Origin: a virus
Length of the DNA: 36,778 nt
Reading direction: 5' to 3' (one strand)
IMG/VR virus record: IMGVR_UViG_3300045988_162097
Coordinates: 1 to 36,778 of that record
Notes under the pieces: generated by a model
Seen by the model: only the letters and a program-made list of their open reading frames with translations
Database searches by the model: none
What the model was told of the DNA's origin: nothing
In this document: positions 129 through 32,118 of the stretch, piece by piece
How the letters are laid out: every line of letters begins with the position of its first letter
Numbering within the stretch: the first letter of the stretch is position 1
Program-made: the position numbers and the translations under genes

Positions 129-532
129 CTCCATGGATATCAGACGCAGTATTAATTGCCTTAATTGGTGGCACAGTCAGTGTAGTCACTGCGTATATGT
201 CCAATCAAGCAAAAAAGAACGCTGACGATATTCTTCGGGAGCTGTCTAAAATGGCCGGGCACATCGAAGAAGTGAAAGCGGAAGTTGCGGAATCAAAAAA
301 AGAAATAAAGGAAGTGAAAGGCATCGGATTGGATAATCGCGGCGGTATCAAGAATACACAGCGTTATCGTCTTTATGCCGATATGAAGGCAGAGCTGCAA
401 CGTGGCTACACTACTGTAAGCCATGCTGCAGAAATTGGTAAGTTGTTCGAGTCTTATACTCACTTAGGTGGGAACGGTGAGATTCAGGACTTACATTCAT
501 TATATTTAAAATTACCGGTTAAACCGGACTAA
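122..532 (+). CDS. Holin-like or lysis-associated membrane protein (one N-terminal TM helix, coiled-coil C-terminal part)
   Basis: Hydrophobic segment WISDAVLIALIGGTVSVVTAYM at the N-terminus. It sits immediately upstream of holin and endolysin. GTG start has no SD of its own (coupled to the mini-ORF). Confidence 0.45.
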   Translation: MLAPWISDAVLIALIGGTVSVVTAYMSNQAKKNADDILRELSKMAGHIEEVKAEVAESKKEIKEVKGIGLDNRGGIKNTQRYRLYADMKAELQRGYTTVSHAAEIGKLFESYTHLGGNGEIQDLHSLYLKLPVKPD

Positions 533-553: not shown

Positions 554-910
554 ATGCCAAATTTATATGATTCATTAATTCAAGGTGTTGTAAGTGTTCT
601 TGGAGTTCTAATTGCTATTTTATTCACGGGGCTTCGTGGATATCTGCAGACTAAAGCTGACGAGTTGAAAACTAAGACCGAAGCTCGCAATTATGACCTT
701 GCTAAAAATATTGTAACTACAGTAGTGGGTGCGGTTGAGCAAATCTTCCGACATGTATCTGATGCAGGTGGCAAAGAAAAATTCGAAGCTGCAGAGCGCC
801 AGGTTATCGCTGAGCTAGAAAAAGCCGGCATCCACTTGGACGCTGATTCTCGCAAATCATTAATTGAAGCAGCTGTTAATGGCATCAACTCATTAAAAGA
901 TATTCAGTAA
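554..910 (+). CDS. Holin (small membrane protein, N-terminal TM)
   Basis: 118 aa with TM segment LIQGVVSVLGVLIAILFTGL and a charged C-terminus. Directly precedes the endolysin. RBS AAAAGGGG 9 nt upstream. Confidence 0.55.
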   Translation: MPNLYDSLIQGVVSVLGVLIAILFTGLRGYLQTKADELKTKTEARNYDLAKNIVTTVVGAVEQIFRHVSDAGGKEKFEAAERQVIAELEKAGIHLDADSRKSLIEAAVNGINSLKDIQ

Positions 911-6085: not shown

Positions 6086-7228
6086 ATGGAATTTACAATA
6101 ACAAAAGGAAAGCAGGCCCGTGCTCAGCGAGTCGTAATATATGGAACCGAAGGAATCGGTAAGTCGACCTTTGCTGCGCAATTCCCGGACCCGCTTTTTA
6201 TTGACACGGAAGGGTCCACATCAAATATGGATGTAAAGCGCCTAGATAAACCAACCAGTTGGATGATGCTTATGAATCAAATTGCGTTTGTAAAGGTGAA
6301 TCCTGGCTGCTGCAAAACCCTAGTAATTGACACCATTGATTGGGCGGAGCAGTTATGTGTGGAGCATGTTTGCGCGTTCCATGGTAAGAAAGGTATCGAG
6401 GACTTCGGGTATGGTAACGGCTATACGTATGTACGCGAAGAAATGGGCCGCTTACTGAACAAGCTGCAGGAGCTGGTGGACTCTGGGGTCCATGTCGTGT
6501 TGACCGCTCACTCGCAGTTGCGCAAATTTGAACGCCCTGAAGAAGAGGGAGCTTATGACCGCTACGAGTTGAAGCTCGGGAAAAAAACCGGCTCTCAAAC
6601 TTCCCCGTTGATTAAGGAGTGGGCTGATATCGTCTTATTCTGTAATTACCAGTTAATGGTCGTTAAATCTGAAAATAAAAAGGCGAAAGCATACGGAGGC
6701 GAGCGATTCATGTATACTACTCACCACCCAGCTTGGGACGCGAAAAATCGCCACGGTCTAGCTCCGAAGTTACCAATGGATTACCGTCAAATTGCGCATA
6801 TCTTCGAAGCGCCAGCTCAGCCTGCTCATCCTGTAGAAGAAATGCCACAGCTAATGAAAGCTGCAGAACCAATCCAGGAAGCTGCGCCGGTCGTTACGGG
6901 TCCAGTCACTCCAGTACAGGAAGCCATTGCATCAGTGGATACAGTCATACAAGCTGCAGGTCCAACAGAGCCAGTTACAAGTGACCCGTTTCCAGAATCT
7001 CCCGTCACGATCGATGTGCCAGATATCATTCCAGCCTCTCTGAAGGACTTAATGCTTCAGTACTCAGTTACAGTTGATGAGCTGCAACTCATGGCATTCA
7101 CTCGTGGTCATTTTCCAAAAGATACGCCGATTGAGAATTTTCCACAGGAATACTTGGGCGCTATCGTCAGCCATTGGCCAAAAACCATTGAAGAAATTAT
7201 GAAAAATAGAAAAATGAAAGAGGTATAA
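6086..7228 (+). CDS. Sak4-like RecA-fold ATPase (AAA_24 family) with a ~150-aa Pro-rich C-terminal extension
   Basis: Walker A GTEGIGKST, and VVLTAHS. The C-terminal third is low-complexity and P/A/V/E-rich. Confidence 0.7.
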   Translation: MEFTITKGKQARAQRVVIYGTEGIGKSTFAAQFPDPLFIDTEGSTSNMDVKRLDKPTSWMMLMNQIAFVKVNPGCCKTLVIDTIDWAEQLCVEHVCAFHGKKGIEDFGYGNGYTYVREEMGRLLNKLQELVDSGVHVVLTAHSQLRKFERPEEEGAYDRYELKLGKKTGSQTSPLIKEWADIVLFCNYQLMVVKSENKKAKAYGGERFMYTTHHPAWDAKNRHGLAPKLPMDYRQIAHIFEAPAQPAHPVEEMPQLMKAAEPIQEAAPVVTGPVTPVQEAIASVDTVIQAAGPTEPVTSDPFPESPVTIDVPDIIPASLKDLMLQYSVTVDELQLMAFTRGHFPKDTPIENFPQEYLGAIVSHWPKTIEEIMKNRKMKEV

Positions 7229-9446: not shown

Positions 9447-11702
9447 ATGGCAGAAAGTACACAAACCGATTTTTTAGAAATTCTTGAAAATGTAGACCCA
9501 GCTTTGTTGGATTACCAGGAATGGGTCAATGTGGGTATGGCTCTTAAATATGAGGGCTATACAGCATCAGATTGGGATAGATGGTCGCAGCGTGATTCAC
9601 TCCGTTACCACCCAGGGGAGTGTTACTCGAAATGGGATACGTTCCAAGGAACTGGCTCACCTGTGACTGGTGGGACTATCTTCCACCTTGCTACTGAGCA
9701 GGGGTGGGAGCCATCGGGCACTCACGATCGATACGATGATGGTCGGGGCGTATTAGATTGGAACTCATATATTCAATATGACAATGGTTATAAATTTCTA
9801 GATAAGGCGTATGTAGATGGTAAGGAGTTCCATGAGCCGACTCATTTTAATCCGGTTCAGGAGATTATCCGTTACTTGGATACATTGTTCATGTCGGATG
9901 ACATCGTGGCCTATTCAATGGAAAGTTACCCTAAATACGGCGAGAATGGAGCTATCGAGAAGTATCTACCAAATAAAGGCAGCTATTATCGTACAGCCGG
10001 GGAGCTCATCCGTGAATTGAATCATTATCAGAATATAGATATGGCGCTTGGGTCCTACAATCCCGAAGCTGGAGCTTGGGTCCGATTTAATCCGTTTGAT
10101 GGCCAGGGCGTGAAAAATGAAAATGTGACGAACTTCCGTTATGCGCTTGTTGAGTCTGACAATATGGACCTAGAAAAGCAGAACGCTATCATGCGTGAGC
10201 TTGAGCTGCCAATTGCAGCTATGGTCTACAGTGGCGGCAAGTCCATTCATGCTATCGTTCGAATCGAAGCTGCTAATAAGGATGAATACAAGACCCGAGT
10301 GGATTACCTATATAAAATCTGTAAAAAGAATGGTCTAAATGTTGATGAGCAAAACAAGAACCCCAGCCGCTTGAGTAGGCTGCCAGGGGTTATCCGTGGG
10401 AATAGTAAGCAGTACATCATCGATACGAATATCGGGCAGGCTTCCTGGGATGAATGGTACCAATACATCGAGGACTTAAATGATGAACTGCCGGACCCTG
10501 AAGGCTTGAGTGATTCCTGGGATAATATGCCGGACCTTGCTCCGGAGCTAATCCAGGGCGTGCTGCGCCAAGGGCATAAAATGTTAATAGCTGGTCCATC
10601 GAAAGCTGGTAAATCATTCTTATTAATTGACATGACGATTGCTATTGCGGAGGGGTCCAAGTGGATAGGCTGGCCATGTACGCAGGGCAGGGTCCTATAT
10701 GTGAACCTTGAGCTCGACCGTGCATCGTGCTTGCATCGTTTTAAGGATGTATATACAGCCAGGGGCGTTGAGCCGAATCATGTTTCAAATATCGATATAT
10801 GGAACCTAAGGGGTAAAACCGTACCAATGGATAAACTGGCACCTAAGCTCATCAGACGAGCCCACAAGAAAGGCTATATCGCAGTTATCATCGACCCGAT
10901 TTATAAAGTACTGACTGGGGATGAGAACTCTGCAGACCAAATGGCCCACTTTACGAATCAGTTTGACAAAGTGGCCACTGAGCTAGGTTGCTCAGTTATC
11001 TACTGCCACCACCATTCGAAGGGTTCTCAAGGCAGCAAAAAATCCATGGACCGTGCCAGTGGGTCGGGCGTATTCGCTCGGGACCCTGACGCATTGATTG
11101 ACCTGGTCGAGCTTGATGTGACTGAAGAAGTCATGAAGCAGCGCACTGAGCGTGTCGCGTGTAGTATCTACAAGGACGCTATTAATCGCATGAATCGACC
11201 ATATATGGAGCAATACGTGGGACTTGATGACCTACAGTCTAGGGTCCAAATGCGCGACCATTTCGAGCGTGCAGTCGTTAATATCAAGGATAGATGGGAA
11301 ACGAACGAGCTCGTAAAAATCTCTATGGAAAAAACTAAATCAAGCACAGCCTGGCGCGTGGATGGCACGCTGCGTGAATTCGCGAAATTCAAACCTAAAA
11401 ATATATGGTTCAGCTATCCGTTGCATAGCGTGGACGAGTCCGGTATCTTGACTGACATAAAAGTGGATGATGCGACTCCGCCTTGGAAGAAGAATTTCCA
11501 AAAGAAAGCCGACCCGGACAAGCGCAAGGAGGAACGAGCAGCCGCTTTTGAGACGGCCTATGCTTCAGTATTTGATGGCGTGAACCCGGTCACTAAAAAT
11601 GACATGTGTGAGGCTTTGGGAATTTCTTCACGAACTTTCAAGCGCAGAATCGATGAAAATCCGGCTTATAAAATGGATGGAGATTACGTTCTAAAAGTAT
11701 AG
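9447..11702 (+). CDS. Bifunctional primase-polymerase (AEP/PrimPol domain) fused to a P4-alpha/D5-type NTPase (primase-helicase)
   Basis: AEP motifs (LVESDNMD; SGGKSIHAIVRI; RLSRLPGVIRGN). Walker A GPSKAGKS and Walker B-like AVIIDPIY in the C-terminal half. Confidence 0.8.
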   Translation: MAESTQTDFLEILENVDPALLDYQEWVNVGMALKYEGYTASDWDRWSQRDSLRYHPGECYSKWDTFQGTGSPVTGGTIFHLATEQGWEPSGTHDRYDDGRGVLDWNSYIQYDNGYKFLDKAYVDGKEFHEPTHFNPVQEIIRYLDTLFMSDDIVAYSMESYPKYGENGAIEKYLPNKGSYYRTAGELIRELNHYQNIDMALGSYNPEAGAWVRFNPFDGQGVKNENVTNFRYALVESDNMDLEKQNAIMRELELPIAAMVYSGGKSIHAIVRIEAANKDEYKTRVDYLYKICKKNGLNVDEQNKNPSRLSRLPGVIRGNSKQYIIDTNIGQASWDEWYQYIEDLNDELPDPEGLSDSWDNMPDLAPELIQGVLRQGHKMLIAGPSKAGKSFLLIDMTIAIAEGSKWIGWPCTQGRVLYVNLELDRASCLHRFKDVYTARGVEPNHVSNIDIWNLRGKTVPMDKLAPKLIRRAHKKGYIAVIIDPIYKVLTGDENSADQMAHFTNQFDKVATELGCSVIYCHHHSKGSQGSKKSMDRASGSGVFARDPDALIDLVELDVTEEVMKQRTERVACSIYKDAINRMNRPYMEQYVGLDDLQSRVQMRDHFERAVVNIKDRWETNELVKISMEKTKSSTAWRVDGTLREFAKFKPKNIWFSYPLHSVDESGILTDIKVDDATPPWKKNFQKKADPDKRKEERAAAFETAYASVFDGVNPVTKNDMCEALGISSRTFKRRIDENPAYKMDGDYVLKV

Positions 11703-12055
11703 ATTTTACACCCAGCAGGTGTATTGGACAAAGACAAACTCGAGGACATGTCATTGGACAAAATGGACAAAACACCGAGTTTGTCCTGTCCGCCGAGTAA
11801 AATTAATTACACCTTTTAGGTGTAGTGGACATGGACAAAGTCGAGGCATTTGTCGAGTTTGTCCATGGACAGGCACCCTATACCCTTATAAGGGGTAAAA
11901 AGTGGAAGTGTCCAAAATTGGCCAGGTCCATGAATGGGTCAGTCAAGGGGGCATTAAATGCTGCCCCCCTTGGCCTGCCCAATCAATCATGGACAATCGC
12001 GAAAAAGAAAAATAAAAGAACGTGAAAAAATCACAAAGTAAAATGAGGTAAAAAT
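11703..12055. repeat. Putative origin of replication: iterons TGGACAAA (at least 4 direct copies), inverted TTTGTCC, 10-bp palindrome GTCCATGGAC, two ACACC…GGTGT hairpins, a GC hairpin, and an A-rich unwinding tract
   Basis: Non-coding 350-bp gap immediately downstream of the primase-helicase gene. Repeats seen directly at 11725-11772, 11826-11873, 11708-11722 and 11810-11824. The A-rich stretch lies at 12001-12055. Confidence 0.55.
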
Positions 12056-12295
12056 ATGAGACGTAAAAAATCGGTAAAATTAGAAGTTGCAAAAAATATG
12101 CCGATGACCTTTCATAGGCTCCCGGGTATGGAATACGACCCGGACAAATCGAAGGTACTCGATTGGATTGCAAATCAGCCCGAATTACTCGAATGGGTTT
12201 TTGAGCAGCTGTACTCAACCGGGTACATCGTTTATGACCCTGCCTGGGGGGCGTGGCATGGTGTCAATTTTAGAAATGCGGAGAACTCGTTATGA
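12056..12295 (+). CDS. Hypothetical protein (79 aa)
   Basis: ORF with SD-like TGAGGT upstream. Confidence 0.5.
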   Translation: MRRKKSVKLEVAKNMPMTFHRLPGMEYDPDKSKVLDWIANQPELLEWVFEQLYSTGYIVYDPAWGAWHGVNFRNAENSL

Positions 12296-12687
12296 TGGTT
12301 GAATTTTTCGTTCCTATGGAACTACCAACAACTACGCATCAGCAGAAGAAAGTATCAGTCAAAAATGGCCAGCCACAATTCTACGAACCGGACGATGTGG
12401 TCGCTGCTCGTGCTAAGTTTATGGCTTACTTCTCGCACTTCGTTCCTCCCGATAAATTAAAGGCTCCGCTGCGCTTAACCACAAAGTGGATTTATCCCTT
12501 AAAAAAAGGCACATATAATGGCCAGTGGAAAACGACCAAACCCGACACGGATAATATCATCAAGCTGCCGCAAGATTGCCTGGCCGAGTTGGGGTTCTTT
12601 GAAAACGATGCAGGTATCGCTTCGAATATCATTGAAAAATTTTGGGGCGACCCGTGCGGCGTTTATGTTAAATTAGAGGAGTTGTAA
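12292..12687 (+). CDS. rusA: RusA-family Holliday junction resolvase
   Basis: Size ~130 aa and motif TKPDTDNIIKLPQDCLAELGFFENDAGI, which matches the RusA catalytic Asp cluster. Start ATG 12292/12295 overlaps the upstream stop. Confidence 0.65.
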   Translation: MMVEFFVPMELPTTTHQQKKVSVKNGQPQFYEPDDVVAARAKFMAYFSHFVPPDKLKAPLRLTTKWIYPLKKGTYNGQWKTTKPDTDNIIKLPQDCLAELGFFENDAGIASNIIEKFWGDPCGVYVKLEEL

Positions 12688-17847: not shown

Positions 17848-19116
17848 ATGCAAATAGAAAAAATAAAAATCGCCGATTTATTGGAATATAAAAACAATGC
17901 AAAAGAGCACCCTCAGTGGCAAATCGACCAAATCGTCGAGTCAATCGAAAAATTCGGATTTAATGACCCGATTGCTATCGATGAAAACAATACAATCATC
18001 GAAGGGCACGGTCGTCTTTATGCGCTGCAAGAAATGGGTGCGGATGAAGTGGAATGTATCCGTCTATCGCACCTAAGCGAAAATAAAAAAAAAGCATACA
18101 TACTCGCTCATAATAAGCTGACTATGAATACCGATTTTGATTCGGACCTGCTCGCTCAGGAGCTGGGCGAAATCGAAGGCATCGACATGAGCTCGTTTGG
18201 TTTCTTGTTGGACCCTATTATTGAAGTAGTTGAGGACGACTTTGACGATGAATCGGTTATCGAGCAGCCGGAGCCGATTGCAAAGCTAGGCGATGTGTAT
18301 CAGCTCGGGGAGCACTTCCTTATGTGTGGGGACAGCACTGATTTCATCGCTGTAAAAAAATTATGTGGTGATGCTCTTATGGACCTACTTGTTACGGACC
18401 CACCTTACAATGTGGCCTACGAAGGAAAAACCGAGGACGCTCTTACGATTGAGAATGACAACATGGACGATGCGAAATTCCGGGAATTCTTAAAAGCTGC
18501 TTTTGCGTGTGCCGATGGCGTTATGCGCCCAGGCGCTGCCTTTTATATTTGGCATGCCGATTCAGAAGGATTTAACTTCCGTGGTGCCTGCCGTGATATT
18601 GGTTGGACTGTTAGACAATGTCTGATATGGAATAAGAACCAAATGGTCCTAGGCCGTCAGGATTACCAGTGGAAGCATGAGCCGTGTCTATACGGGTGGA
18701 AGGATGGAGCAGCTCATTATTTTGTTGATGACCGGAACCTGCTCACGGTCCTAGAAGAAGAATCAGAATTAAAGAAAATGTCAAAAGCGGAGCTCATTAA
18801 TTATATTTTGGAATTTCAGGAGTCTACTGCGACCACTGTGATTAATGAAGTGAAGCCTAGCCGTAATGGTCTACACCCTACGATGAAGCCGCTACGCCTA
18901 ATCGAGCGCCTGGTGCGTAACTCTAGTAAAAAAGGCGAGAATGTGTTAGACCTATTCAATGGCATCGGGTCCACTCTTATGGTCTGCGAGCAATTGGGCC
19001 GCCGGTATTTTGGTATGGAACTCGACCCTCGTTATGTGGATGCTACCATCGAGCGCTGGGAAGAATTCACGGGTAAAAAAGCAGTGAAGATATCTTCAAA
19101 CAATCAAGATAATTAA
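17848..19116 (+). CDS. ParB-like nuclease domain fused to a beta-class N6-adenine/N4-cytosine DNA methyltransferase (orphan methylase, likely anti-restriction)
   Basis: N-terminal ParB-N-like region (…IEGHGRLYAL…). Motif IV DPPYN (LVTDPPYNVAYEG) precedes the SAM-binding motif I (LDLFNGIGST). That motif order is the beta class. Confidence 0.85.
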   Translation: MQIEKIKIADLLEYKNNAKEHPQWQIDQIVESIEKFGFNDPIAIDENNTIIEGHGRLYALQEMGADEVECIRLSHLSENKKKAYILAHNKLTMNTDFDSDLLAQELGEIEGIDMSSFGFLLDPIIEVVEDDFDDESVIEQPEPIAKLGDVYQLGEHFLMCGDSTDFIAVKKLCGDALMDLLVTDPPYNVAYEGKTEDALTIENDNMDDAKFREFLKAAFACADGVMRPGAAFYIWHADSEGFNFRGACRDIGWTVRQCLIWNKNQMVLGRQDYQWKHEPCLYGWKDGAAHYFVDDRNLLTVLEEESELKKMSKAELINYILEFQESTATTVINEVKPSRNGLHPTMKPLRLIERLVRNSSKKGENVLDLFNGIGSTLMVCEQLGRRYFGMELDPRYVDATIERWEEFTGKKAVKISSNNQDN

Positions 19117-19995
19117 TAGCAGGTTTCGTTTGTGAATGGTTATTTTTTCAAGGATTATAACAGCAAAAACATTCAGTAAAGAGAACGTTTCAAGGGTTAT
19201 AAACCTTGATTTTACGCCATTTTCGGGCGTTTATAAACGTGAAGAGAGTTAGTGCAGAGTGTGAAAAGAGTTTATATGAAGAGTTGGCTTGTGAATAAAT
19301 TTATCGTTTTTCGCAAAGGTCAAAAGTTTTGAAAAGGTCGAAAAATTTTTAAACACAAAACATTTCATTTTTTCACGGTTTTTCGAGATTTCTTTGTGAA
19401 TCGTTGTGAACTTACTTTTTGAGCCTTTATAAACACTTTTTTTACGAGATTTAAGGGATTGAAAACCTTGATTTTATGCGTTTTTTAGACTCTTGATAAC
19501 GTTAAATATTTCAACAACGTTTTTTGAAGAGACGTTTTTCATTTTCGTTTGTGAAAAAATCGCATTTAAACGGGAAAAAGTTGCCAAGACTTTTTTTGAC
19601 AACATAACAGCATTTAAAAACCTTGATTTGGCGCCATTTCTAGGTGGTGCATTTTCGCAAGGTTTTACAAGAAACAGAGCAAGAAAAGTTATAAAGTTTA
19701 TTTTTATGTTTATTGTGAAAAAATCTCATTCTTTTGTTAAAAAAGGGCATGAGAGAAATATTTTAAAACAATCAGTTTTTGCCTTTGTGCATTTTTGGTG
19801 CTATCACGATCTAAAATCGCAAAGGTTTTTTACAAGATTTTAAAACCCTATAACGGCGCCTTTTGTCGGGTGTCGTTTTTTAGTTTTTACCGCATGAGAG
19901 TTCCCAAGAGTTTGGGCGTCCTTTTCCTTTGTGAAAAATCAGCGGTAAAATAATCATAAAGACAAAAGACTAGCAAAAAAAGGAAGTGAGGCGGT
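19117..19995. repeat. 870-bp AT-rich non-coding region packed with dispersed or tandemly diverged repeats (AAACCTTGATTT x3; TTTGTGAA[A/T] x6 or more; TTATAAAC x3; GCGCC-ATTT-..GGGTG x3; TCGCAAAGGT x3). Candidate pac/terminase recognition region, late regulatory region or ncRNA locus
   Basis: Seen directly. It is the only large gap in an otherwise compact genome and lies immediately upstream of terS. The only ORF here (19493-19843) is a Phe-rich, low-complexity product of T-rich sequence and has no RBS. Confidence 0.6.
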
Positions 19996-28968: not shown

Positions 28969-31900
28969 ATGGCATTAACCTTGGAGCAGGTCCAAGTGCT
29001 GATAAAAGCCGAGACAGGTCCTTACAAGAAGGCTCTGAAAGAAATTCAGAATCAAACCGATAACGCTCAGAAGGTTGTAAACCAAAAGGTAGGCGGCATG
29101 AATGAGACGTTCGCTAGAATAGGGAACGCCATAAAAATTGCAGCTATTACTGGGGCGTTATATAAAGTAGGCAGTTATGGGACTCAGATGGCTTTGGAAG
29201 TCAGCGCTGCTATGAACCAAATCAAGCGGACCATGGGTGAGAGCTCGCAGTCGTTCTTAAAATGGGCCGATAATGGGGCCATCGCTTACAATATCGCAAA
29301 GGCAGATGCCTTAAAATATGGAGCGGTGTACTCTAATCTATTTAGTAATTTTATCAAGGACTCAGACCAATTGAGTGGCTATACTGTAAAAATGCTTGAG
29401 GCGTCTTCAGTCATTGCCAGCGCTACTGGTCGAACGATGGACGATGTAATGAACCGAATTCGGAGCGGTATGCTCGGTAGTACTGAAGCCATTGAGGACC
29501 TTGGTATTAATGTAAATGTAGCTATGTTAGAAGCCACGGAGGCGTTTCAGCAGTTAGCGAACGGGCGCTCTTGGGCTCAGCTAGATTTCAATACACAACA
29601 AGCAATCCGCATGATGGCTATCCTGGAGCAAGCATCGAAAAAATACGGGACGACTCTCATGCAGGGTCCAACCACGAGCCTTGCTTACTTTGTGGCGCTG
29701 TTAAAAAATAGCGCTCTTAATATCGGGAATGCATTTCTTCCGATTCTTAATGCTATGATGCCAGCCTTGAATACATTCGCATCATTCTTGAATACAGCCA
29801 CGAGCGCCCTTGCTACGTTTACCCAGCTCTTATTCGGTAAGACGGTTAATACGAGCGGCGGCTTAGGTGGAGCCATGAGTGGCGTTCAAGATGCTGCAGG
29901 CGGAATCGCTGATAGCCTTGGCGATGCTGGTAATGGTGCCGGTAAGCTAGGAGATGGCGTTGGTAAAGCTGGTAAAGCTGCTAAGCAGGCAGCAAAAGAA
30001 ATGCTGGGTCTTTTAAAATTTGACGAGATTAACTCGCTGAGCAAAAAAGCTGCTGGCGGCGGAGATGATGACTCCGGCGGTGGTGGCGGAGGCGGAGGCG
30101 GCGGTGGTGGTGGCCGTGGGGGCGGAGCTCCTGGCGGTGGCGCACTAACTCTTCCGAAGGTGTCATTCTCTGATGCATTCAACGAAGAGGACACTGGTCC
30201 TATCGTTAAATTTTTAGAAAAACTCAAAGAATTGTTACAACCTACAATCGAGGCGTTGGGTCGACTAGCGAAAGCACTGGAGCCATTGAAGCAATTTGTG
30301 GCCACTGCACTCATTGATTTTTATGAGCGCTTTTTAGTGCCGGTCGGGTCCTGGGTCCTAGGGGAAGGGCTGCCGCGATTCATTGATATCATCACTAAAA
30401 CCTTGAACAATATCGACTTCCCTAAAATCAACGAAGCGTTACGCCAATTTTGGGACGCCTTAGCTCCATTCTCGATTACTATCGGGGAAGGTTTGCTGTG
30501 GTTCCTGGATAATGTCATGAGCCCATTAGTGAGTTACACGATTTCGGATATCGTTCCGGAGTTTATTCGTGGTATAGCTGGTGCGGTAAAAATTGCAGAC
30601 GGTGTATTGCGTGGAGCTGGTGACGCGTTTGCGTGGTTGTTCGATAGTTTCTTAGCTCCGATTGCTCAGTGGACCGGTGGGGTCATTGTTGAAGTCCTTA
30701 AGCGACTAGCCGATGCGCTCCAAGTCATTGGGGATTGGTGTAATGAAAATACAGGAGTCATCTCCGGAATTACTAAGGTCTTAGGTGCATTTTTCGGTGT
30801 GTGGAAGTTGATTGAATTCGCTGCGTACATCGAACAGTTGGGCGGCCTTGCTGCTGTCTTTGTAACTCTTAAAAATGCACTGGTCGGATTAACAATTGGT
30901 AACTTGAAGTCGTTCGGTGAGTCGTTATATCTAACGGCCCTATATGCGAAGGACTTCGTTATAAATAGCGCGAGCATGATTGGCAGTTTAATTGCCCAAG
31001 GATGGCAGTGGGCAACTACTGCAGGAGCCATGGCACTTCACACTGCTGCATCGACTGCTGCTGCTGCGGCAACGTGGTTACTGAATGGAGCGATTGCGGT
31101 CCTAACCAGTCCGATTACAGCAGTTATTGCGGCCATTGCTGCATTAGTAGCGATTGGGATTGCGTTGATTGCAAACTGGGATACTGTTGCGCAAGTTTCT
31201 GCAGAAGTATGGCAGGGTATTTGCGATTTCATCGGCGGAGCCTGCGATGCAATTGGCCAGTTCTTCTCGAAGCTATGGCAGCAGATTGTGTTTGAGTTTT
31301 CTCAAGCTCCAGCCTGGTTTAATACTGTATTTAAGCAAGCATGGGACAATATCGTTAATGTGTTTAAGGCTTTAGGTCAATGGTTCGGTCAAAGGTGGCA
31401 GGATGTAGTATCCGCGTTGAGTAGTGTCGCATCATGGTTTGGCAACATGTTCCGTCAAGCGTGGACAGTGGTGACTGGTATATTCGCCGGTATCGGTTCA
31501 TGGTTCGGAGCTCGCTGGCATGATGTCACGAATATCCTGGGCGGTGTGGCTTCTTGGTTCGGCGGAATCTTCCGCAGTGCATATAGTGCAGTTCAAGGGG
31601 CATTCAGCGGCATCGGGTCATTCTTCAGTGGCGTATGGTCCACTGTTAGAGGCATCTTTGTGAACGCCGGTCAAATGATAGGGTCTGCGGTCGGTGGTGC
31701 GTTCCGTGGAGCAGTGAATGCTGTTCTTGGCACCATCGAGAATGTAGTAAATGGATTTATTGGCATGATTAATGGAGTTATTGGTTTAATCAATAAAATT
31801 CCAGGTGTATCGCTCGGAAGCATTGGGTATGTGAATCTGCCACGACTAGCGCGTGGGGGTATCGTTGACAGTGCTACGCTCGCAATCGTGGGGGAAGCCG

Positions 31901-32118
31901 GACGAGAAGCCGTTATGCCATTAGAAAATAACACAGGTTGGATTACTGATTTAGCTGGTAAAGTCGCAGCTCGTATGCCGGAAGGTTCGGGCGGTGGTAA
32001 TGCTCCGGTAATCAGAGAGCTAGTGCTAAAAGTCGGGGATGATGAATTCGGTCGCTGGACGATTGATAAAATCAACCAGGCACAGGCGCAAGCTGGCCGC
32101 TTGTTGTTAAATGTTTAG
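28969..32118 (+). CDS. Tail tape measure protein (1049 aa) with an internal poly-Gly tract and SWFG-type tandem repeats
   Basis: Largest gene, follows G/GT. Contains a Gly20-like run and repeated G.WFG..W.DV motifs. Confidence 0.9.
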   Translation: MALTLEQVQVLIKAETGPYKKALKEIQNQTDNAQKVVNQKVGGMNETFARIGNAIKIAAITGALYKVGSYGTQMALEVSAAMNQIKRTMGESSQSFLKWADNGAIAYNIAKADALKYGAVYSNLFSNFIKDSDQLSGYTVKMLEASSVIASATGRTMDDVMNRIRSGMLGSTEAIEDLGINVNVAMLEATEAFQQLANGRSWAQLDFNTQQAIRMMAILEQASKKYGTTLMQGPTTSLAYFVALLKNSALNIGNAFLPILNAMMPALNTFASFLNTATSALATFTQLLFGKTVNTSGGLGGAMSGVQDAAGGIADSLGDAGNGAGKLGDGVGKAGKAAKQAAKEMLGLLKFDEINSLSKKAAGGGDDDSGGGGGGGGGGGGGRGGGAPGGGALTLPKVSFSDAFNEEDTGPIVKFLEKLKELLQPTIEALGRLAKALEPLKQFVATALIDFYERFLVPVGSWVLGEGLPRFIDIITKTLNNIDFPKINEALRQFWDALAPFSITIGEGLLWFLDNVMSPLVSYTISDIVPEFIRGIAGAVKIADGVLRGAGDAFAWLFDSFLAPIAQWTGGVIVEVLKRLADALQVIGDWCNENTGVISGITKVLGAFFGVWKLIEFAAYIEQLGGLAAVFVTLKNALVGLTIGNLKSFGESLYLTALYAKDFVINSASMIGSLIAQGWQWATTAGAMALHTAASTAAAAATWLLNGAIAVLTSPITAVIAAIAALVAIGIALIANWDTVAQVSAEVWQGICDFIGGACDAIGQFFSKLWQQIVFEFSQAPAWFNTVFKQAWDNIVNVFKALGQWFGQRWQDVVSALSSVASWFGNMFRQAWTVVTGIFAGIGSWFGARWHDVTNILGGVASWFGGIFRSAYSAVQGAFSGIGSFFSGVWSTVRGIFVNAGQMIGSAVGGAFRGAVNAVLGTIENVVNGFIGMINGVIGLINKIPGVSLGSIGYVNLPRLARGGIVDSATLAIVGEAGREAVMPLENNTGWITDLAGKVAARMPEGSGGGNAPVIRELVLKVGDDEFGRWTIDKINQAQAQAGRLLLNV

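Follow-up and report, generated by a model that had tools for sequence, protein, structure and literature searches.

The 353-bp non-coding gap at positions 11703–12055 of a phage genome (record IMGVR_UViG_3300045988_162097, positions 1–36,778, here called the window) is probably the replication origin of the phage. It lies directly behind the gene of a primase-helicase of 751 amino acids (aa), which would be the protein that reads it. The gap was filled with short repeated sites (iterons). In related phages and prophages a gap of this kind followed the same gene, and the sequence of its iterons changed together with the recognition helix of a predicted winged helix-turn-helix (wHTH) at the C-terminus of the protein. 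This reading was built from sequence comparison and structure prediction.

An iteron array behind the primase-helicase gene

A sequence-only reading of the window had described at least four direct iterons with inverted TTTGTCC copies, a perfect 10-bp palindrome and two ACACC-N5-GGTGT hairpins in the gap. All of these were present, and the iterons occurred far above chance. The iteron TGGACAAA was found four times on the + strand of the gap and once in the inverted form TTTGTCCA (11858–11865), and the first iteron began 23 bp past the stop codon of the primase-helicase gene. Five of the eight TGGACAAA copies of the 36.8-kb window fell within 141 bp of the gap. The number expected per window was 1.4, and eight copies were matched in none of 100 shuffles. 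There was no second TGGACAAA cluster in the window.

Of the 24 copies of the core TGGACA in the window, nine were in the gap, and GGACA/TGTCC was present 12 times in the 353 bp (8 as GGACA on the + strand, 4 as TGTCC on the - strand). The inverted TTTGTCC copies, at 11780–11786 and 11858–11864, lay within two exact 11-nt copies of CGAGTTTGTCC (11776 and 11854). The palindrome, GTCCATGGAC at 11861–11870, was made by a back-to-back pair of iterons and was the single one in the window (0.02 expected). The two ACACC-N5-GGTGT hairpins (designated A1 and A2) were also the only two in the window (0.01 expected).

These elements were arranged in two repeat modules of about 100 bp, visible as a 40-nt direct repeat (11706–11745 and 11807–11846) with 80% identity. 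Each module ran from a small hairpin through TGGACA and GACAAA(C/G)TCGAG to the inverted CGAGTTTGTCC. The whole array spanned about 290 bp and contained about 15 sites. No other 300-bp stretch of the window was as rich in repeats as the gap (score 40; median 0; 95th percentile 6). As single-stranded DNA, it folded at z = -8.25 versus shuffles, and the region 11826–11871 in module 2 folded as a hairpin with z = -6.9.

The gap was non-coding: in relatives with a 97% identical primase it had gained 11 nt by one insertion and lost 1 nt by a deletion. Small open reading frames (ORFs) in the gap (11719–11898, 11825–12025 and 11943–12218 on the minus strand) were ruled out as genes by these frame-breaking indels in close relatives. 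Sequence changes in the gaps of the 97% relatives often made extra copies of the motif. At the position of 11776–11791, for example, these relatives carried TTTGTCCATTTGTCCAT, which amounts to two clean inverted copies. In hairpin A1 they kept the stem and changed the loop. Hairpin A2 was kept as CACC-TAAAA-GGTG in a group of relatives with 77% identity.

Co-variation of the iterons with the predicted recognition helix

A search with the DNA of 11500–12300 found no match among 50,697 phage records. All comparison was therefore made through the protein, by which 162 relative loci with 50–97% identity were fetched. They came from Streptococcus prophages (Javan series), Bacillus phage BCJA1c, Paenibacillus larvae phages, Enterococcus and many Clostridia. 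Nearly all of about 140 relatives had a non-coding gap of ~230–550 bp behind the gene. Each lineage had a short motif of its own in the 420 bp that follow the stop codon, repeated 5–14 times and on both strands. That gap and array kept their position in this way supported the proposal of an iteron-type origin just after the primase-helicase gene.

The motif was TGGACAA in the lineage of the window, GGACAAA in the 77%-identity group and AGGGACA in the S. mitis group. Bacillus, Enterococcus and Clostridia had AGGGAAA. Other lineages had TGTGCAA, GTGTCAA, ATGTCCA, GCCGCAA or GAAATGA/AGTGAAA.

The string of the recognition helix predicted the iteron family across 138 distinct loci, and 49 distinct helix strings mapped consistently. 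EKTLKRRIKE was accompanied by GGACAAA in 26 of 26 cases, EKT[IV]RRW[IV]K[ND] by AGGGACA in 32 of 32, and SRTFKRRIDE by TGGACAA in 4 of 4; xKTVRNR[IL]KE was accompanied by AGGGAAA. With the identity of the protein body controlled, the partial rank correlation between helix-turn-helix (HTH) identity and iteron-profile similarity was 0.50, which was reached by none of 500 label permutations.

The part of the protein that changed with the iterons was sharply bounded. Among pairs whose protein bodies were at least 85% identical, 1007 differed in their iterons; in these, identity was 86–100% up to residue 675 and 21–30% from residue 676 on. Pairs with the same iterons showed 68–78% identity from residue 676 on. 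At the DNA level, loci L009 and L019 were ~90% identical over nt 1–2000 of the primase gene, 18–50% identical thereafter through the gap, and ~90% identical again in the RusA gene. The wHTH and the gap had moved together as one cassette.

Linkage alone was insufficient for the co-variation, because 12 AGGGAAA-type members from different host orders kept the helix and the iterons while the rest of the gap diverged. These members had 5–14 iterons and the near-invariant helix KTVRNR[IL]KEHGG, and the similarity of the rest of their gaps was 0.60, vs 0.56 for shuffled sequence. The co-variation and the cassette exchange argued for the suggestion that the product of 9447–11702 reads the iterons.

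Small hairpins with A/T-rich loops recurred next to the iterons in lineages with other iterons. GACCA-TAAAAACG-TGGTC was present three times in Javan377 (L001, 5234–5342), and ATCAT..ATGGT was present in Dragolir (L003, 5251–5316). Such hairpins may act as an additional binding site that is more conserved.

Domains of the primase-helicase

The 751-aa protein matched phrog_2597 ('DNA primase') along its full length. Its helicase core matched RepA of RSF1010 (1g8y; E = 4.2e-7, residues 380–542), the only solved relative by sequence. In the same search against solved structures, no Rep or PriRep chain of the Staphylococcus aureus pathogenicity islands (SaPIs) matched the helicase core.

The last ~60 residues resembled a helix-turn-helix ('MCEALGISSRTFKRRIDE'). 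Five HTH Pfam families matched the same C-terminal residues, all below threshold, and a 65%-identical homologue carried HTH_11 in its precomputed annotation. Two AlphaFold2 (AF2) models gave pLDDT values of 76–85 over this region. The top Foldseek matches of the C-terminal model were winged-helix DNA-binding domains (NolR/SmtB, IclR, DtxR-like, CAP and MarR). The C-terminus is thus predicted to be a winged HTH. For a protein that combines a primase, a RepA-type helicase and a wHTH, the most economical reading would be an origin-specific, self-loading initiator.

A structurally conserved hairpin in front of the A-rich tract

Behind the iterons, the GGGGGCA…TGCCCCC hairpin of the sequence-only reading was found as the apex of a longer imperfect hairpin (11925–11995), which folded at -15.3 kcal/mol (z = -2.75). 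Iteron-like sites flanked this long inverted repeat on both sides and faced outward (region 11909–11995).

The equivalent 110 nt before the A-tract were folded in 100 non-redundant family members. The median z was -4.1, and 78% fell below -2. Controls from within the gene gave a median z of -0.65, with 10% below -2 (p = 2e-22). The pairing was kept through changes of sequence. In one lineage the outer stem GTCCATG/CATGGAC was replaced by GTTCAGA/TCTGAAC with pairing preserved, and the apex sequences varied by lineage, yet always paired. MAFFT/RNAalifold recovered only the outer stem and the apex, because the alignment was not structure-aware, and the per-sequence folding statistics were used instead.

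The minus strand of the 110 nt upstream of the A-rich tract (11891–12000 in the window) folded better in 74 of the 100 members, by a mean of 2.2 kcal/mol (p = 1.7e-6). This preference could come from base-composition asymmetry or from a role of the bottom-strand hairpin.

The order of elements after the iterons was common to the family: a (TA)n tract in some members, the long inverted repeat with its GC-rich apex, a "GCG + A-rich" junction, and the ribosome-binding site (RBS) of the next gene. Of 133 distinct gaps, 42 had the (TA)n tract, 15–25 nt long and placed after the iterons and before the long hairpin (for example in loci L037, L039, L051, L067 and L001). The lineage of the window either lost this tract or never had one. 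The terminal A-rich tract, which had also been pointed out from the letters, was present. The coordinates of all features are collected in Table 1.

Table 1. Features of the gap, of the genes around it and of the primase-helicase. Positions are those of the window, or residues of the 751-aa protein where so marked.
Feature	Position	Strand	Remarks
Sak4-like AAA_24 gene	6086–7228		Recombination gene near the gap
Primase-helicase gene, 751 aa	9447–11702	+	Directly 5' of the gap; PriCT_2 and AAA_25
PriCT-2	residues 11–82		Pfam PF08707
AEP-like primase core	residues ~150–330		Includes 'YSGGKSIHA'; motif inspection and weak BT4734-like_N match only
RepA/RecA-type hexameric-helicase core	residues 366–545		Pfam PF13481 (AAA_25)
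Helical domain	residues 560–631		Followed by linker and C-terminal winged HTH
Specificity module	residues 676–751; nt 11472–11699	+	Basic linker and predicted winged HTH (~690–751)
Predicted winged HTH, helices	residues 690–708 and 717–724		
Predicted recognition helix	residues 728–736; nt 11628–11654		SRTFKRRID
Predicted beta-hairpin wing	residues 741–750		
Small hairpin A1	11708–11722		ACACC-CAGCA-GGTGT; opens module 1; fold z = -2.9
Module 1 direct iterons TGGACAAA	11725, 11755, 11764	+	Latter two tandem, 9-bp period (region 11725–11771)
Module 1 long iteron form GACAAACTCGAG	11733–11744	+	
Module 1 degenerate iteron GGACAT	11744	+	
Module 1 inverted iteron CGAGTTTGTCC	11776–11786	-	
Module 1 inverted iteron TGTCC	11787–11791	-	
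Short AT-rich spacer	11795–11808		Before hairpin A2
Small hairpin A2	11809–11823		ACACC-TTTTA-GGTGT; opens module 2
Module 2 iterons TGGACA	11826, 11866	+	
Module 2 iteron TGGACAAA	11832	+	
Module 2 iteron GACAAAGTCGAG	11834–11845	+	
Module 2 iteron TTTGTCGA	11849	-	
Module 2 iteron CGAGTTTGTCCA	11854–11865	-	
CCCTATACCCTTATAAGGGGT with palindrome CCCTTATAAGGG	11876–11896		Place of the (TA)n tract in 42/133 relatives
Inverted TGTCCA	11909–11914		Iteron-like site outside the long hairpin
Long imperfect inverted repeat	11925–11995		~70 nt; outer arms GTCCATG 11926–11932 / CATGGAC 11988–11994
GC-rich apex of the long hairpin	11947–11953 / 11962–11968		GGGGGCA / TGCCCCC
"GCG + A-rich" junction and A-rich tract	11997–12055	+	A-rich tract 12001–12055, 36 A in 55 nt
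RBS of the 79-aa gene	12045–12049		GAGGT; ends the A-rich tract
Conserved 79-aa gene	12056–12295	+	Function unassigned; right boundary of the gap; phrog_16687, E = 1.6e-25
RusA gene	12292–12687	+	PF05866; next after the 79-aa gene

Genome context

The phage genome was ~37 kb long with 44% G+C, and every gene was on the + strand. The replication module was ordered as AAA_24, a 188-aa gene, a DEAD helicase, the primase and the gap. Terminase, SPP1-type portal and capsid protein genes were also recognised in the window. The window showed neither an integrase or repressor gene on the minus strand nor a phage gene for a DNA polymerase. The lysin (946–1839) joined a CHAP domain with choline-binding repeats, and this make-up suggested a mitis-group Streptococcus as the host.

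The 79-aa gene to the right of the gap had the same place in the 97% and 77% relatives. In S. mitis-type relatives, the gene at its position had a similar basic N-terminus (M-x-R-K/R-K-K...). Its product may assist replication as an accessory protein.

A further stretch, rich in repeats and in T and poorly coding, was seen at 19117–19995, between a DNA methylase gene (17848–19116) and the terminase genes. It contained a 31-nt dispersed repeat (TTATAAACCTTGATTTTACGCCATTT...) in four copies (19197, 19427, 19459 and 19614), and TTTCGTTTGTGAA was present there 3–5 times. This stretch may be a pac site or a late regulatory region. A GC-rich 24-nt tandem repeat (2.1 copies) with CTCCGCC repeats was present at 30075–30125, within a 1049-aa ORF (28969–32118). 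By its size and its place after the capsid gene, this ORF is probably the tape-measure gene.

Searches for other identities of the gap

No DnaA boxes were found in the gap, and in the whole window they were at chance level. The gap contained no tRNA or tmRNA, and no sigma-70-like promoter or terminator was found on its + strand. No credible Rfam family was found in it, just RAGATH-33 below threshold and microRNA noise. The RAGATH-33 candidate, a weak full-length match at 11942–12063, was rejected at 22.5 bits (E ~0.02–0.04) vs a gathering score of 120.4. It took in the GC hairpin and the A-rich tract together with the RBS, and the relatives Javan377, BCJA1c and Dragolir gave no match to this family. 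GC-skew showed no inflection at the gap, and with all genes on one strand this measure was uninformative.

Comparison with known origins

In the record of the Streptococcus thermophilus phage Sfi21 (NC_000872; Foley et al. 1998), the primase gene is directly followed by a 302-bp non-coding 'origin of replication, phage inhibitory sequence'. According to a 2026 paper, most Streptococcus phages have their predicted origin downstream of the replication module. The earlier remark that the origin sits just after the primase gene in related siphoviruses held for both.

The Sfi21 origin consisted of inverted GTTAC/GTAAC repeats around an AT-rich centre. Like the gap (353 bp), it was a non-coding stretch of ~300 bp right after a primase gene, and the replication modules were syntenic (Sak4-like ATPase, helicase, primase). 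Both elements had short repeats in both orientations, and both ended at the RBS of the next gene. On the other hand, the gap had no long AT-rich centre, and its iterons were TGGACAAA in place of GTTAC/GTAAC. The Sfi21 primase had no homology to the 751-aa protein (BLASTP E = 1.6), and the DNA of the Sfi21 origin had no similarity to the gap. In the record (NC_000872) this primase is only a 'putative primase' with a nucleoside-triphosphate-binding motif, and there is a separate 'DNA polymerase/primase' gene. Since the primases were not homologous, Sfi21 was a precedent in position and architecture, not in family.

The Rep and PriRep proteins of SaPIs bind iterons immediately downstream of rep via a C-terminal winged helix and load themselves (PMC9371898). 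The likeness of these islands (phage-inducible chromosomal islands, PICIs) to the gap lay in short iterons (5–8 bp in SaPI) of opposite orientations directly 3' of the initiator ORF, and in a C-terminal winged helix of the initiator that sets specificity. In SaPI5, moreover, the primase is fused to the helicase (PMC9371898). They differed in that SaPI Reps are SF3/AAA+ helicases, whereas the core here was RecA-type and RepA-like (AAA_25). SaPI iterons flank a central AT-rich region, while the centre here was the inverted repeat with the GC apex. The SaPI is also a satellite, and the window is from a phage.

At oriV of the IncQ plasmid RSF1010, replication uses RepA, RepB' and RepC, with iterons and the hairpin priming signals ssiA and ssiB (PMC8567376; PMC4234260). 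RepA was the closest solved relative of the helicase core here, and in both systems iterons were combined with inverted-repeat hairpins. RSF1010 replication is DnaA-independent, and the gap was without DnaA boxes. The three functions are on separate proteins in RSF1010 and on one fused polypeptide here. RSF1010 has 20-bp direct iterons and the paired ssiA/ssiB, whereas the gap had 8-bp iterons in both orientations and one long inverted repeat. By analogy, the hairpin of the gap would have an ssi-like role.

ORF904 of plasmid pRN1, which joins an AEP primase, an SF3 helicase as well as a winged helix, needs a structure-conserved stem-loop downstream of its own gene, and its authors noted similar arrangements in phages (PMC4234260). 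As in pRN1, one protein here combined an AEP-like primase and a helicase with a predicted winged helix at the C-terminus, the putative origin was downstream of its own gene, and a long stem-loop was conserved in structure but not in sequence. The differences were the SF3 helicase and the lack of iterons in pRN1, which is an archaeal plasmid, and a stem-loop of ~100 nt there vs ~70 nt here.

In phage P4, the alpha protein unites a Toprim primase with an SF3 helicase, and its C-terminal winged helix binds octamer iterons. Besides ori, P4 depends on another iteron cluster (crr), which lies about 4.5 kb away. The single primase-helicase with a C-terminal winged-helix domain for octamer iterons would be shared by the system described here, and a counterpart of the crr cluster was absent from the window.

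As read here, the element works like those of Sfi21, SaPI, pRN1 and RSF1010. By homology it is a member of none of them, except through the RepA-type helicase core.

Alternative explanations

Several points weighed against an origin. The claim that the gap combined iterons with a DNA unwinding element stood as far as the iterons were concerned; the A-rich tract as the unwinding element was its weakest part and found little support. The duplex stability (dG) of 12001–12055 was ~-58, vs a window mean of -67 (standard deviation 4.9), about 1.8 standard deviations less stable, and in the duplex-stability scan the tract was not within the 12 least stable 50-mers of the window. The (TA)n tract was absent in this lineage, with CCCTTATAAGGG in its place. 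This lineage is without a strongly AT-rich unwinding element, its A-tract being only moderately unstable.

The iterons were short (8 bp), and their spacing was irregular. No Foldseek match of the C-terminal model reached E <= 0.001, and the full-length AF2 model was poor (pLDDT 59.8, pTM 0.31) and unfit for fold comparison. The protein family was not used by small plasmids, and the only full-length match in the plasmid collection was a prophage in a 2.7-Mb replicon. Because the family was not found as a plasmid replicon, there was no natural minimal replicon showing that the gene and the gap suffice. The literature searches turned up no paper in which an origin is mapped for this primase family. 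The wHTH adjoins the gap, so part of the association between them is linkage. Finally, co-variation would mean that the wHTH reads the repeats, and the consequence of this could be autoregulation, not initiation.

The last point leads to an operator array, in which the wHTH of the primase-helicase or another regulator controls the genes that follow (from the 79-aa gene and RusA onward) or autoregulates, and replication begins elsewhere. Co-variation proves recognition only, the repeats end at the RBS of the next gene, and initiators of iteron plasmids often double as autorepressors. However, the DNA-binding domain is on the primase-helicase, for which site-specific loading would be the obvious use, and the + strand of the gap offered no sigma-70-like promoter to control. 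An array of ~290 bp with ~15 sites and a structurally conserved 70-nt hairpin is far beyond the needs of an operator, and the Sfi21 record puts its origin at the same position. We consider an operator without an origin unlikely; the two functions are not mutually exclusive.

The long hairpin and the A-rich leader (11925–12055) might instead be a structured RNA, as an element of the 5' untranslated region, a processing site or a small RNA of a polycistronic early transcript, with the iterons unrelated or secondary. The region is co-oriented with all genes and directly 5' of the RBS, its hairpin was conserved in structure and not in sequence, and the weak full-length RAGATH-33 match fell there. 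This match was far under the gathering score, however, and was not found in three relatives. The minus strand folded better than the mRNA-sense strand in the majority of members (74/100), the opposite of what is expected from an mRNA element. The iteron-like sites flanking the hairpin varied with the HTH of the protein, and the left 200 bp of repeats would stay unexplained. An RNA element of this kind is very unlikely. Clustered direct and inverted repeats are also found in pac and centromere-like sites, and recombination genes (Sak4-like AAA_24 and RusA) flank the gap, as would suit another DNA-handling site (pac/cos, a centromere of the partition type or a hotspot of recombination) recognised not by the primase-helicase but by another protein. 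But the terminase genes were 8 kb away, and 19117–19995, directly upstream of them, was a better pac candidate. No ParA/ParB-type gene was present among the genes searched, and the co-variation with the C-terminus of the primase-helicase would have no explanation. We regard such a site as highly improbable.

Proposed mechanism of initiation

Taking the gap as the probable origin, we infer binding, melting, priming and origin activity in the following order. The C-terminal wHTH, with its helix SRTFKRRID, would bind the (T)GGACAAA iterons of both orientations in the two ~100-bp modules, and also the further iteron sites that flank the long inverted repeat. As many protomers gather on the ~290 bp, their RepA-type helicase domains would form rings. 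The DNA would be distorted or opened beside the iterons, likeliest at the long inverted repeat 11925–11995, which could extrude as hairpins; a second candidate for the opening site is the A-rich tract next to it. The N-terminal AEP-type primase would then lay the first primers on the exposed strands. Extension by a host polymerase is proposed because the search of the window revealed no gene for a phage DNA polymerase.

A wider proposal is offered tentatively, as a possibility that we hold to be less than probable. The family may follow the initiation logic of IncQ and pRN1 in a single polypeptide, with the iteron binder, the RepA-type helicase and the AEP primase joined together. The origin would then have two functionally distinct halves. 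One would be the fast-evolving iterons, read by a swappable wHTH of ~75 residues. The other would be the conserved hairpin and "GCG-A-rich" junction, which would serve the invariant body of the protein as an ssi-like signal for priming or helicase loading. If this were true, the dozens of natural helix/iteron pairs would form a readable recognition code and a ready set of mutually orthogonal initiator/origin pairs.

Significance

The arrangement is one that phage biologists would expect and is not surprising. The support that comparison gives it here is unusually strong. The new detail is the family-wide table of helices and iterons, together with the sharply bounded specificity cassette of ~75 residues. 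If the reading is confirmed, it would fix the start of replication in a large group of uncharacterised Firmicute phages and prophages. Among its members are prophages of S. pyogenes, S. agalactiae, S. mitis and Paenibacillus larvae, with more than 8000 homologues in public data. The comparison also pins the determinant of specificity to the last ~75 residues of the putative initiator and supplies about 49 natural pairings of recognition helix and iteron. These pairings may be of use for orthogonal replication modules, for phage-specific decoy ('PER'-type) resistance elements, and as a test set for the DNA specificity of winged helices.

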